DNA of 64,000 nt from a virus, in IMG/VR virus record IMGVR_UViG_3300012953_000019, positions 32,001 to 96,000 of that record. One strand, written 5' to 3'. Both the position numbers and the translations under genes were made by a program. The notes beneath the pieces were generated by a model. That model was not told the DNA's origin. It searched no databases and saw only the letters and a list, made by a program, of their open reading frames with translations. Each line of letters opens with the position of its first letter. Within the stretch, counting starts at the first letter, position 1. Positions 2,789 through 6,794 of the stretch are shown piece by piece.

Positions 2789-4291
2789 ATGCACGGAATA
2801 ATATTTGGTGGCTTGTTAGAAGATATGGGAATGGACTCCAGTATGGTAAGCATTCGCAGATCATCTGGCGCACATAAAATTGCTACCTTTTTACGAAAAC
2901 ATAATTATGATATTGAGGTTGTTGATTATATTCATCGATGGTCTTTAGATCAATTAAAAGAATTTGCAACAAAGAAAGTTGATAATGAAACTCTTTTCTT
3001 TGGCTTTAGTTCTACATTTATGATTAGTACACCAGAATTAGTTGAGTTTGTTCATTGGCTCAAAGAAAGATACCCACATATAAAACAAGTTATTGGCAGT
3101 CAGAATCAAACGATGAAAGAATTGCCCTGTGATTGGTATGTTTATGGGTATGGTGAGTACGCTATATTGGCTCTTATAGACCATTTTAGAGGCGGTCCAG
3201 AGCCGATACACGAAGGAAATCTCATAAATGCATACACGAACTACAAGGCATTTCCTAAAGAAGACCTTTCTGTTCAGTATACAGAAAGAGATTTTATCCA
3301 CGACAGAGAAATACTACTATTAGAGATGGCAAGAGGATGTAAGTTTAAATGTTCTTTCTGTAGTTTTCCTATTCTTGGTGTGAAAGATGATCATACAACT
3401 TCAGAACAATATTTCTACGATGAGATGTTGAGAAACTATGACAAATGGGGTACGACTCATTACATGGTTCTAGATGAAACATTCAATGATTCTAGTGCAA
3501 AGATTGCCAAGTATGCGGCTGCCTGTAGAAAACTTCCATTCAAACCTAAAATGACTGCTTATATTAGAGCAGACTTAATGGTATCTAGAATACAAGATTG
3601 GGATAACTTGATAGATATGGGAATCACTTCTCATTTTTATGGTGTTGAATCTATGCACTTGCCTTCAGCGAAATCAATTGGCAAAGGAATGAATAGTGGT
3701 AGAATACAAGATGGATTATTAGCAGTAGATTCTTACTTTAGAAAGAATGCTGGCTTTTATAAAGGACATATATCTTTGATTGCTGGCTTACCACACGAAA
3801 CGTTGGATACACTTAGAGAAACAAAAGACTGGTTAGAAAAGTATTGGCAACAAAATAGTTTTCATTTGAACATATTGATGATTAAAGACTTAGAGAAAAA
3901 TGGTACATCATTGAATCATAATTCTGCTATGGATAAAGATTGGAAAAGATTTGGATACGAGAAAACTACTTTTCCAGAAGAGTGTGATATTGATTGGAGT
4001 AAAAGTTTCAATCCATACTTTAAAAATCTTTATGAGTATGTAGATAACTATGAGTATTATTTAAAATGGAAAAATCCAAATCTAAGTTTATATGATGTTA
4101 CTAAATTTGCTGTTGAAGAATGGAGCCAAGCTAAACTTAAAAATGGTATCGATCCATTTATGTATGATAAGTTCTTTATAGATCCTACAGTGAAATGGAG
4201 TGACTTTGCAGAATTAAATCATTTAGAAAGAAGAACAGAGCATATCAATGCTCAGATAGATTCTTATATAGAAAGAAAATTAGTCTCTTGA
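2789..4291 (+). CDS. Radical SAM protein with an N-terminal B12-binding-like domain (class B-like)
   Basis: CxxxCxxC in ARGCKFKCSFC; also DETFN, YIRADL, GVES and IAGLPHET. The N-terminal region (VIG...D.YVYGYGE) resembles B12-binding domains. Confidence 0.85.
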   Translation: MHGIIFGGLLEDMGMDSSMVSIRRSSGAHKIATFLRKHNYDIEVVDYIHRWSLDQLKEFATKKVDNETLFFGFSSTFMISTPELVEFVHWLKERYPHIKQVIGSQNQTMKELPCDWYVYGYGEYAILALIDHFRGGPEPIHEGNLINAYTNYKAFPKEDLSVQYTERDFIHDREILLLEMARGCKFKCSFCSFPILGVKDDHTTSEQYFYDEMLRNYDKWGTTHYMVLDETFNDSSAKIAKYAAACRKLPFKPKMTAYIRADLMVSRIQDWDNLIDMGITSHFYGVESMHLPSAKSIGKGMNSGRIQDGLLAVDSYFRKNAGFYKGHISLIAGLPHETLDTLRETKDWLEKYWQQNSFHLNILMIKDLEKNGTSLNHNSAMDKDWKRFGYEKTTFPEECDIDWSKSFNPYFKNLYEYVDNYEYYLKWKNPNLSLYDVTKFAVEEWSQAKLKNGIDPFMYDKFFIDPTVKWSDFAELNHLERRTEHINAQIDSYIERKLVS

Positions 4292-5899
4292 AATAAATCT
4301 AGCAGAACCTTGACTATCAGGAGCCATAGAATCTCCGAAACTTACATTTACTGATACCTCTGATTTTGGTGCTGGACCAGAATTTCCACTGGAAGTGTCA
4401 TTAATGACTATAGGCTCTGCTGGCTGTGATTGAAGTTCTTCTACTTCTTCTGTGTTTTGTTGTAACGGAGCAGAATCAACCATTGGTTGTGTGGTAAGAG
4501 GTGTTACATTACTTCTGCTTTCAAGTTCTGATGTTATGAGTGCTTTATTCTCATCGCTGATATCGTCATCTTTAATAATCGCTTGTAGTTGTCCTGTGGT
4601 CGCATCACCAATCATATCAGCATTTACTTCACTATTGCCAATTATGTCTTTATCAAACAGACCACTATCTTTTGCGGAGTCTAAGTTTGTTTTCTGTACT
4701 GCTCTTGCCTTTATTTCGGTTTCTACAAACTCTGTAACTTGTTTAGTTGCTTCTTCAAGAAGTGCTGGCATTCTTTCTTTTACTTTAGGATCACCTTCTG
4801 GATATTGTCCATGAACTTCATTATACGCCTCTCTTGCAATTTCATAACCAGCAACACCCAAAGTACCTACAGTACCTACACCAGGAGCAAGTGCAGTAGC
4901 GGCTAGTCCTGCACCTACCATATCACCTTCTATAAGTTTTTTCACACCTAATACACCACCAGCAACAGTTCCTAAAAAAGGAATTGCTCTAGAAACAAGA
5001 CCTGGTCCTTTTGTAGCCACGATTTTTGCAATGACTGGTGATAGATTCTTGCTACCTGGGCCAGTTGCTACATCAAGTACTTTATCCGCAATTTTTGTTT
5101 TCTGTAATAGCTTGGCTACTGTACCTGTACCCTCTGATGCATTTAAAGCCACTCGACCAGCTACATCGATACCCGCCTGCGCTGTTTTATTTGCTATAGT
5201 TGTAACTGGTTTGCTTGTTAGTACATCTCCGCCGGCTTTAAGTAATCCACCAGTTAGCTTTGAATTGCCTAATACTTTTACTGCTTTGGTTGAATCTAGT
5301 ACATCAAAGTCTGCTGGTTGTTGTGGTGTTGCATTAACTTCACCAAAATTTACTTCACCAGCATTTGCATTGGATGTCAGCATATTTAATGCAGTCAGAC
5401 CTGCCAAGCCACCAATGGCACCTTTACCTACATTCTTTGCTTTTTGTGGTATTGCAGGCATAGAAAATCCTGCTTTGATTTCCTCTTCTGTTTTTTCTTT
5501 AGTTGTAAAAGTTTCTTTTACTTCTGTATTTTTATTAATATCTTTTAGTTCTTCTTTGATGTCTACCAAAACACTTTCAATGTCTTGTAAGGTATCAGTA
5601 GATGATTCTAATACATTTGCATTTACAGTAGTATTTCTTCCGTTGTTATTGGCAACTTCTCCCTGTTGAGATACGTTTGCAGAAGCATTATCTGTTACCG
5701 CCCCAGGATTGTTTGATGCTAGATTTGCTCTAGCCATAGAATTAAAAGGAATTACATTGTCACGATTGCCACCTCTTCCAGCTAACATACCTGCACCAAA
5801 TGTGGCGCCTGTTCTGGCAGCTCCAGCCACTCCGCTTACGAGTGCACCTGCACCTCTTAATATTGGAGTTAATAGTGTAGATAGTGGATTTGGTAGCAT
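4280..5899 (-). CDS. Probable tape-measure/baseplate hub protein (gp29-like position)
   Basis: 539 aa, Ala/Gly-rich helical protein with GG-rich hydrophobic stretches, directly downstream of gp26/gp51. Length is close to T4 gp29. Confidence 0.5.
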   Translation of the reverse strand: MLPNPLSTLLTPILRGAGALVSGVAGAARTGATFGAGMLAGRGGNRDNVIPFNSMARANLASNNPGAVTDNASANVSQQGEVANNNGRNTTVNANVLESSTDTLQDIESVLVDIKEELKDINKNTEVKETFTTKEKTEEEIKAGFSMPAIPQKAKNVGKGAIGGLAGLTALNMLTSNANAGEVNFGEVNATPQQPADFDVLDSTKAVKVLGNSKLTGGLLKAGGDVLTSKPVTTIANKTAQAGIDVAGRVALNASEGTGTVAKLLQKTKIADKVLDVATGPGSKNLSPVIAKIVATKGPGLVSRAIPFLGTVAGGVLGVKKLIEGDMVGAGLAATALAPGVGTVGTLGVAGYEIAREAYNEVHGQYPEGDPKVKERMPALLEEATKQVTEFVETEIKARAVQKTNLDSAKDSGLFDKDIIGNSEVNADMIGDATTGQLQAIIKDDDISDENKALITSELESRSNVTPLTTQPMVDSAPLQQNTEEVEELQSQPAEPIVINDTSSGNSGPAPKSEVSVNVSFGDSMAPDSQGSARFISRD

Positions 5900-6084
5900 T
5901 ATTGTTTCCTTTGTTTATCTGCTTTCTTTTTTAGATGGTCGATTAGCATACTTACGTATACTTCCCTCTCCCATGGAACCCAACTTTCGATCTCTGTTAA
6001 ATTATATTTATGCTCTTGCATTAATAGAAAGTTAGTTTTGAAGAAATTCTCCATAGTTTCATGTGAGAGGGCTAGACGAAAAAA
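5899..6084 (-). CDS. gp51: Baseplate hub assembly factor gp51-like; probably reached by -1 frameshift from gp26 (internal ATG at 6054)
   Basis: ENFFKTNFLLMQEHKYNLTEIESWVPWEREVYV is typical of gp51. The frame overlaps the end of gp26. Confidence 0.8.
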   Translation of the reverse strand, partial: FFRLALSHETMENFFKTNFLLMQEHKYNLTEIESWVPWEREVYVSMLIDHLKKKADKQRKQ

Positions 6085-6779
6085 TCCAAATAGCCATTCA
6101 TATAAAACGTACTGGTCTTTCCACACTCTTTGTTCTTACAAGTGAATTCAATTTCTCTTTCAAGAACTGGCATAGTAGAAAAGAACTTTTTAAATCCGTC
6201 AAACTCTTCAAGAGACAAATTTTCAATAAACTCTACTCTTTCTTCTATGGACAAATCTGAAGCCATTAGAACATCATCTTTAGTATGAATTTCTTCAATA
6301 CAACTAGCAGACGCATGATAGATATCCATTTCTTGTTCTGCTTTTCCAATTTCCATTAGAACTTCTGCTGTTGGATATCCCATAACTACTGCTGTAGAAT
6401 CATTAACTTTTATGGGATTGATATGATCTTCTTTCTCTTGAATATCAAAATTTCTCATATCAATTTCTTCTGGCTGAGTCTCATTACAATGTCCACATAC
6501 AAAGTTTACTTCAAACTTTGGTGAGATTGATTGTGATCTAAGCTCCATAAAAATTTTCTGTAGATCAAAGATTGGTATTTCATCACCTTGAATTTCTCCA
6601 AAAGAACAATTCGTAATTACTTGTTGAATTGCTTTTACAAGATCAAGTTGATCATCTGACTGTGTTGCCATTACTAGTATTTTTTCTTCCTTTACTAGAA
6701 AAGGTCTGAACTTATACGACTTTCTTCGGGACAGTATGTCAATTTCAAAAAGTCGCTGGTCACTTTGGGGTATGCTCAT
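6072..6779 (-). CDS. gp26: Baseplate hub assembly chaperone gp26-like
   Basis: YKFRPFLVKEEKILVMA, FDLQKIFMELRSQS, CGHC and C..KECG motifs. Confidence 0.85.
   Translation of the reverse strand: MSIPQSDQRLFEIDILSRRKSYKFRPFLVKEEKILVMATQSDDQLDLVKAIQQVITNCSFGEIQGDEIPIFDLQKIFMELRSQSISPKFEVNFVCGHCNETQPEEIDMRNFDIQEKEDHINPIKVNDSTAVVMGYPTAEVLMEIGKAEQEMDIYHASASCIEEIHTKDDVLMASDLSIEERVEFIENLSLEEFDGFKKFFSTMPVLEREIEFTCKNKECGKTSTFYMNGYLDFFV
6078..6084 (-). promoter_or_regulatory. Candidate -1 ribosomal frameshift heptamer T TTT TTC
   Basis: X XXY YYZ heptamer in the gp26 frame, one sense codon before its TAG. The -1 frame is the gp51 ORF. Confidence 0.7.
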
Positions 6780-6794
6780 TATAACTCCTAATTA

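Follow-up and report, generated by a model that had tools for sequence, protein, structure and literature searches.

A probable programmed -1 frameshift joining gp26 to a gp51-like reading frame in an uncultured marine T4-like phage

Two long-known systems resemble the locus analysed here. Xu, Hendrix and Duda are said to have reported in 2004 that the gpG/gpGT pair of lambda exemplifies a -1 frameshift conserved in genes for tail assembly chaperones in long-tailed phages, and Christie et al. reportedly found in 2002 that phage P2 makes E and E+E' through a -1 slip at a T6 run located immediately upstream of the gene for the tape measure. The -1 frameshift in the tail assembly chaperone (TAC) genes of long-tailed phages is summarised in PMC9603447 and PMC12846349. 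In T4, gp26 (208 amino acids, aa) and gp51 (249 aa) are listed as 'hub assembly chaperones' (Leiman et al. 2010, PMC3004832, Table 2). Here we analyse the junction between gp26 and a short gp51-like open reading frame (ORF) in an uncultured marine T4-like phage, the source of a 64,000-nucleotide (nt) stretch of record IMGVR_UViG_3300012953_000019 (hereafter the window). Four genes lie in series on the minus strand of the window: a tube-like gene, gp26, the short ORF in the -1 frame and a 539-aa gene. An earlier note on this DNA proposed that the gp26/gp51 pair is the equivalent of lambda G/GT, expressed by a -1 slip. The proposal is supported by the conservation of the slip site, a codon control, homology to T4 gp51 and a chaperone fold. 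On this comparative and structural basis, we conclude that a programmed -1 slip on T_TTT_TTC very probably fuses gp26 to the gp51-like ORF, giving a 235-aa and a predicted 293-aa form of the chaperone.

A poly-T signal of this kind also has a more recent precedent. For poly-T -1 signals in the TAC-N genes of T4-like phages, the paper on phage Adele (PMC12846349) refers to Vladimirov, Gautam and Davidson (Virology 2022;566:9-15; doi 10.1016/j.virol.2021.11.003), and the PRFect paper cites the same work for T4-like phages that have one short gene and one long fusion gene, with no frameshift. As represented by these two citing papers, the protein family, its assignment as a chaperone, slippage on poly-T and the alternative with two genes appear to be already published, and the earlier note's impression that such a frameshift had not been described for T4-like phages is probably wrong. 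A direct full-text search for literature on gp26/gp51 with a frameshift gave no relevant paper; the prior work was reached through the PRFect citation.

The slip site and its conservation

The gp26 gene ends GAT TTT TTC GTC TAG, and the heptamer T_TTT_TTC within this ending is in X_XXY_YYZ phase with the gp26 frame (Table 1). Re-reading of the sequence returned every position given in the earlier note, together with the gp26 ending and the phase, just as stated there. The window is AT-rich and contains 29 copies of TTTTTTC, compared to 28.8 +/- 5.7 expected. Thus, the heptamer alone is at chance level, and the signal is its position, phase and conservation.

The position and phase were compared in 56 loci, comprising the window, 45 IMG/VR contigs retrieved by searching with gp26, four marine isolates (S-CAM4, S-CAM1, pelagiphage Mosig and P-HM1) and six distant T4-like phages (Vibrio nt-1, Sinorhizobium phiM9, Aeromonas phiAS5, Cronobacter S13, Ralstonia RSP15 and Stenotrophomonas YB07). 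The gp26 proteins of these loci fall into 18 clusters below 60% identity. Comparison of gp26 3' ends, the check that the earlier note had suggested, finds the heptamer and the -1 phase kept in all of these loci: T_TTT_TTN is in phase in 56/56 loci, as TTTTTTC in 54 and as TTTTTTG and TTTTTTT in one each. The site recurs in cyanophages, a pelagiphage and methylophilales phages, through to the distant T4-like phages, where YB07 provides a GC-rich context. Its distance from the gp26 stop is also nearly fixed, with the heptamer starting 10 nt before the stop in all loci except L029 (7 nt) and Mosig (31 nt), i.e. in 54/56.

The individual variants are as follows. In Mosig (L003, 1503-1536), the 0 frame has seven more sense codons between the heptamer and the stop, and in L029 (2214-2223) the stop directly follows the heptamer. 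The TTTTTTT site belongs to RSP15 (L057). The TTTTTTG site belongs to phiM9 (L053), where the second codon is thus Leu; we take this variant to be the slip sequence of P2.

Conservation of the heptamer extends to codon choices that the protein itself does not explain. Six other conserved Phe columns of gp26 mix TTT and TTC, and the third base preceding them is mixed too. At the junction, among unique sequences, the preceding base is T in 42/42, the first codon is TTT in 42/42 and the second is TTC in 40/41. A natural control is provided by gp26 of T4, in which Phe-Phe at the same place is encoded GAG TTC TTT and is non-slippery.

Coding and fold on either side of the junction

The -1 frame behaves as coding sequence from the slip site onwards, as the earlier note had read it. 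In the window it runs from 6084 (FFRLALSHETMENFFKTNF...) to a TAA stop at 5901..5899; in the related loci it opens 0-17 codons upstream of the heptamer and continues for 58-67 codons from it. The encoded peptide is conserved from residue 1. Fourteen of its residues are invariant among 21 sequences (F1, F2, H8, N18, F19, L21, Q23, H25, Y27, P37, E39, R40, Y43 and L47), and His8 lies upstream of the ATG of the window, which is residue 11. Codon-position entropies in the -1 frame are 1.14/0.85/1.51 for residues 3-10 and 1.06/0.74/1.44 for residues 11-25. Since position 2 is lower than position 1, and position 1 lower than position 3, in both segments, the coding pattern is present from residue 3. 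A tblastn search with the 61-residue -1 peptide matched 552 phage records, nearly all from query residue 1 (at least 495 records). In records listed for both this peptide and gp26, the peptide match begins 6 nt before the gp26 match ends, as the heptamer requires.

Start codons in the -1 frame show no such constancy. The first is found at +15, +30 or +33, depending on the lineage, and S-CAM4, L011-14, L018, L029, Mosig, phiAS5 and S13 have none before +48 to +63, which is inside the conserved core. The ATG at 6054 is therefore not conserved in position. It also has no Shine-Dalgarno-like or purine-rich stretch before it, consistent with the earlier note, whereas gp26 (AGGAG at 6789..6785) and the 539-aa gene (AAGGA) each have one.

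The conceptual fusion has 293 residues, 234 from the 0 frame and 59 from the -1 frame, close to the approximately 290 aa estimated earlier; at the junction GYLDFF of the 0 frame is followed by RLALSH of the -1 frame. The predicted tryptic peptides TSTFYMNGYLDFFR or LALSHETMENFFK would identify the fusion and TSTFYMNGYLDFFV the short form, whereas a product begun independently would have MENFFK at its N-terminus. The expected masses are about 34 kDa for the fusion and about 27 kDa for the short form. Both parts belong to known families. The gp26 protein is a member of Pfam PF12322 (T4_baseplate; E 1.2e-45, 156 bits with a cut-off of 24.5), and the -1 ORF matches phrog_634, 'baseplate hub assembly catalyst' (E 7.9e-26). 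A single family, phrog_150 (282 positions), spans the two, with gp26 at positions 6-232 and the -1 ORF at 224-280. The same continuity is found in gp51 of T4 (249 aa) and of Yersinia phage JC221 (247 aa), each of which is a single ORF with a PF12322 domain followed by the same C-terminal part. The conceptual fusion aligns with T4 gp51 in one high-scoring segment pair (residues 22-279 with 14-244) with no gap at the junction, where the fusion reads YLDFFRLALSHETMENFFKTNF.

The two parts of the fusion were modelled separately. The AlphaFold2 model of gp26 has a predicted local distance difference test score (pLDDT) of 85.7 and a predicted template modelling score (pTM) of 0.80. Compared by VIA-align with 48,161 chains, it ranks 3fgx_B first (Z 7.2, root mean square deviation (rmsd) 4.7, 88 aligned), followed by 2ob9_B, the HK97 tail assembly chaperone (Z 6.6, rmsd 4.8, 79 aligned), and 3klu_A, YqbN (Z 6.1, rmsd 3.8, 82 aligned), all matched on residues 1-95. 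These are the three solved phage tail assembly chaperones (HK97 gp13, YqbN and Rbstp2171; PMC9603447, citing Pell et al. 2013). The model thus indicates a spiral chaperone-like fold for the N-terminal domain of gp26, a coincidence in the top three ranks that is hard to ascribe to chance. A Foldseek comparison of the same model with the PDB gave no significant match, and at the sequence level gp26 matched none of the solved structures. The model of the -1 peptide (pLDDT 80.7) consists of a linker (residues 1-10, pLDDT ~60) and three helices (residues 11-24, 29-33 and 37-60).

Four cysteines of gp26 are also invariant (C95, C98, C214 and C219). They form two pairs separated by 120 residues and are brought together in the model. 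This region has weak matches to zinc ribbons (ZitP, NrdR, LysW and ribosomal proteins). The three solved chaperones have no inserted zinc ribbon; in T4 gp51 the CPKC...CC pattern is retained.

Mechanism and competing explanations

Under the proposed mechanism, most ribosomes would remain in frame and stop at the TAG one sense codon past the heptamer, producing the 235-aa TAC-N. A minority, with tRNA-Phe on the UUU-UUC of U_UUU_UUC, would slip back by one base, and both tRNA-Phe would re-pair perfectly with UUU-UUU after the tandem slip. The slipped ribosomes would then read 59 further codons in the -1 frame to give the 293-aa long form (TAC-NC) as a minor product. For comparison, the efficiency of the frameshift in lambda is a few per cent. 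By analogy with lambda gpG/gpGT, coating of the tape measure would fall to the N part and recruitment of tube subunits to the C part. The ribosomal nature of the slip, its efficiency and this functional split are inferences. The C-terminal three-helix part of the long form would correspond to the 'short gp51' of marine T4-like phages. In cyanophages and marine vibriophages, gp51 has only about 20% of its length in T4 and is without the first ~200 residues (Sullivan et al. 2010, PMC3037559), which the frameshift would explain, the missing part being gp26, joined by the slip.

Two candidate stimulators of the slip were considered. The hairpin that the earlier note saw downstream of the heptamer (6068..6048) does exist and is weak, as stated there, but is not a credible stimulator: it has a folding energy of -6.0 kcal/mol with z = -0.63, and 46/200 shuffled sequences fold equally well. 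No pairs were predicted by RNAalifold for 28 aligned junctions, and 36 junctions folded one by one give energies between 0 and -15 kcal/mol without a common stem. Upstream, a Shine-Dalgarno-like GAGGG or GGAGGG is located 9-14 nt from the heptamer in many cyanophage loci; the window has only TGG, and the element corresponds to a conserved Gly codon. In view of the lack of a conserved RNA stimulator, the heptamer is likely to act by itself.

Several observations weigh against a frameshift. The long product of this locus is a prediction from sequence and models. There is no conserved stimulatory RNA structure at the junction. The structural Z-scores of 6-7 are moderate and fall in the range where VIA-align warns of common arrangements. 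The ATG at 6054 is present, and the modelled helical domain begins at about that residue. Finally, an ATG is found just past the gp26 stop in many lineages, overlapping it as TAATG or TGATG in nt-1, phiM9, RSP15 and YB07 and located at +15 in many cyanophage loci.

The last two observations suggest how a second route could operate beside the slip. With the ATG placed at the onset of the helices, a free protein of 51 aa is plausible on physical grounds and might occur alongside the fusion, and the ATGs near the gp26 stop would allow coupled re-initiation. The -1 ORF could then be expressed in two ways, as the C-terminus of the fusion and as a separate three-helix protein of 51 aa initiated at ATG 6054 or, in other lineages, at ATGs that overlap the stop, resulting in three chaperone species instead of two. 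With no conserved RNA stimulator at the slip site, the ratio would be set by the heptamer alone. We consider this combined scheme unlikely. Independent or coupled initiation is possible as an additional route, but it cannot account for the codon-level data.

The same starts could instead serve without any frameshift, the gp51-like ORF being translated separately (ATG 6054, 51 aa) or by termination-reinitiation, and the T-run being kept for the Phe-Phe of gp26. Besides the ATG of the window, near which the modelled helices start (about residue 11), and the overlapping or adjacent stop-start arrangements of several lineages, annotation agrees with separate genes: in 12/12 annotated GenBank records examined the ORFs are kept apart or the second is unannotated. 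However, a need for Phe-Phe leaves the invariant preceding T and the fixed TTT-TTC order unexplained, given that other Phe codons vary and that T4 gp26 uses TTC TTT. Several lineages lack a start codon ahead of the conserved residues, and in the window itself His8 and the coding periodicity lie upstream of the ATG, which, unlike the starts of both flanking genes, has no Shine-Dalgarno sequence. T4 gp51, moreover, is the fused form. Separate translation in place of a frameshift is thus improbable.

A fusion could also arise by slippage of RNA polymerase on the T6 run, which would add one U to some of the transcripts. The signal is a homopolymer run (T7 in RSP15), and the lack of a conserved RNA stimulator for ribosomal frameshifting would fit. 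Productive transcriptional slippage in bacteria, however, generally needs about 8-9 or more A/T, compared to which a run of six is short. Polymerase slippage would also be indifferent to phase, whereas slippage of tandem tRNAs calls for the strict 0-frame phase seen in 56/56 loci and for the fixed base 7. We regard this explanation as very improbable. The remaining possibility, a T-run lying by chance next to an overlapping ORF, an assembly error or a pseudogene, would suit the chance frequency of TTTTTTC in the AT-rich window but is effectively refuted by 56 independent loci, drawn from isolates as well as metagenomes, in which the geometry is identical and under purifying selection.

Neighbouring genes and comparison with known systems

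Table 1. Features around the gp26/gp51-like junction, in window coordinates
Feature	Coordinates	Strand	Basis
Upstream tail-tube-like gene (gp48/gp54 class), 237 aa	6795..7508	-	PHROG phrog_45 'tail tube', E 7.9e-32
gp26, short chaperone form (TAC-N), 235 aa, 0 frame	6072..6779	-	Pfam PF12322, phrog_150
Slippery heptamer T_TTT_TTC, X_XXY_YYZ phase with gp26	6078..6084	-	sequence; related loci
gp26 0-frame stop TAG, one sense codon past the heptamer	6072..6074	-	sequence
Extension in the -1 frame (gp51-like, TAC-C part), 61 codons counted from the slip site, then stop TAA	5899..6084	-	phrog_634, phrog_150
ATG inside the -1 frame (residue 11 after the slip), possible independent start	6052..6054	-	sequence
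Weak hairpin, probably not functional	6048..6068	-	folding, alignment
539-aa Gly/Ala-rich gene, tape-measure candidate by position only	4280..5899	-	place, size, composition

The gene upstream of gp26 is tube-like (phrog_45), and at the equivalent position in Vibrio nt-1, phiM9, Cronobacter S13 and Mosig the annotation is gp54, the tail tube initiator. The earlier note placed the junction just upstream of the tape measure gene. In its place, size and composition the downstream 539-aa gene fits a tape measure, but homology to T4 gp29 or to any family was not found. The protein matches no family in Pfam or PHROG, and 13 homologues scanned one by one against Pfam gave no match either; BLASTP and hhalign detected no similarity to T4 gp29, nor did BLASTP to ORF206 of Vibrio nt-1; and tblastn against phage records gave no match. 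In metagenomes only close relatives were found, and its ESM Atlas model is of low confidence (pLDDT 0.42), with nothing identified from the Atlas. In T4, the tape measure gene, encoding gp29, is not adjacent to gene 51.

The 539-aa gene is the last of the operon and is followed by a terminator-like hairpin at 4253..4238 on the minus strand. It overlaps a convergent radical SAM gene (2789..4291, plus strand) by 12 bp (4280-4291), and the hairpin (4238-4253) sits inside the 3' end of that gene. At its other end, the 539-aa gene has an ATG that shares bases with the stop of the -1 ORF (TAATG, 5895-5903, minus strand). A TAATG, TAAATG or TGATG overlap recurs in many related loci. With this arrangement, frameshifted ribosomes would finish exactly at the next start codon.

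T4 itself arranges the two genes differently, as the earlier note had remarked. T4 gp26 is homologous to the short form, and T4 gp51 to the short-form domain plus the C-terminal part that is encoded here in the -1 frame. In both T4 and JC221, gp26 is a paralogue of gp51 without the C-terminal part. The T4 genes, however, are separate and divergently transcribed, there are two copies of PF12322, and the Phe-Phe encoded as TTC TTT leaves no slippery heptamer. T4 gp26 (L054, 3803-3860, minus strand) ends ...KEFFELL, and in this C-terminal FF the junction survives as a relic that lacks the slip site. Genes 54, 51, 26 and 25 of JC221 (L051) share a single strand, whereas 26 and 51 are divergent in T4. 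The complete genomes with a slip site, S-CAM4, P-HM1, nt-1 and phiAS5, have one PF12322 gene, compared to two in T4. The 116-kb record to which the window belongs (~70% complete) also has one, and the T4-type organisation, with two separate paralogous genes of which the long one is a single ORF, is thus not found in it. These counts indicate that T4 uses two genes for what slip-site phages can make only by recoding one. T4-like phages would then follow the general rule for the tail chaperones of long-tailed phages, with T4 as a derived two-gene variant.

The recoding site is real, strongly conserved and ordinary. Its practical value is for annotation; as a discovery it is not new. A joined coding sequence is annotated in 0/12 GenBank/RefSeq records examined. 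The -1 ORF is unannotated in S-CAM4 (L001), S-CAM1 (L002) and Cronobacter S13 (L056), and in phiAS5 (L055) it is cut to 40 aa from an internal Met.

Compared to lambda G/GT, the locus has the same order of a tube-like gene, a chaperone, a -1 extension and a long Gly/Ala-rich gene. The slip site likewise precedes the stop of the short form by a few codons, the N-terminal domain has a chaperone-like fold in the model, and the long form is a minor product, here a predicted one. The differences are that no sequence similarity is detectable, that the heptamer is U_UUU_UUC instead of the G_GGA_AAG of lambda, that gp26 is larger (235 aa) and carries the four-Cys zinc-ribbon-like insertion, and that the downstream gene is a tape-measure candidate. 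With P2 E/E+E', the locus shares a myovirus tail chaperone pair and a -1 slip on a T6 run, but the proteins form a separate family by sequence and P2 E is much smaller. The closest likeness is to the system of Vladimirov et al. (2022), as far as it is represented by the papers that cite it: PF12322, the gene pair and the TAC-N/TAC-NC logic are alike, and the window adds one more case, from an uncultured marine phage.

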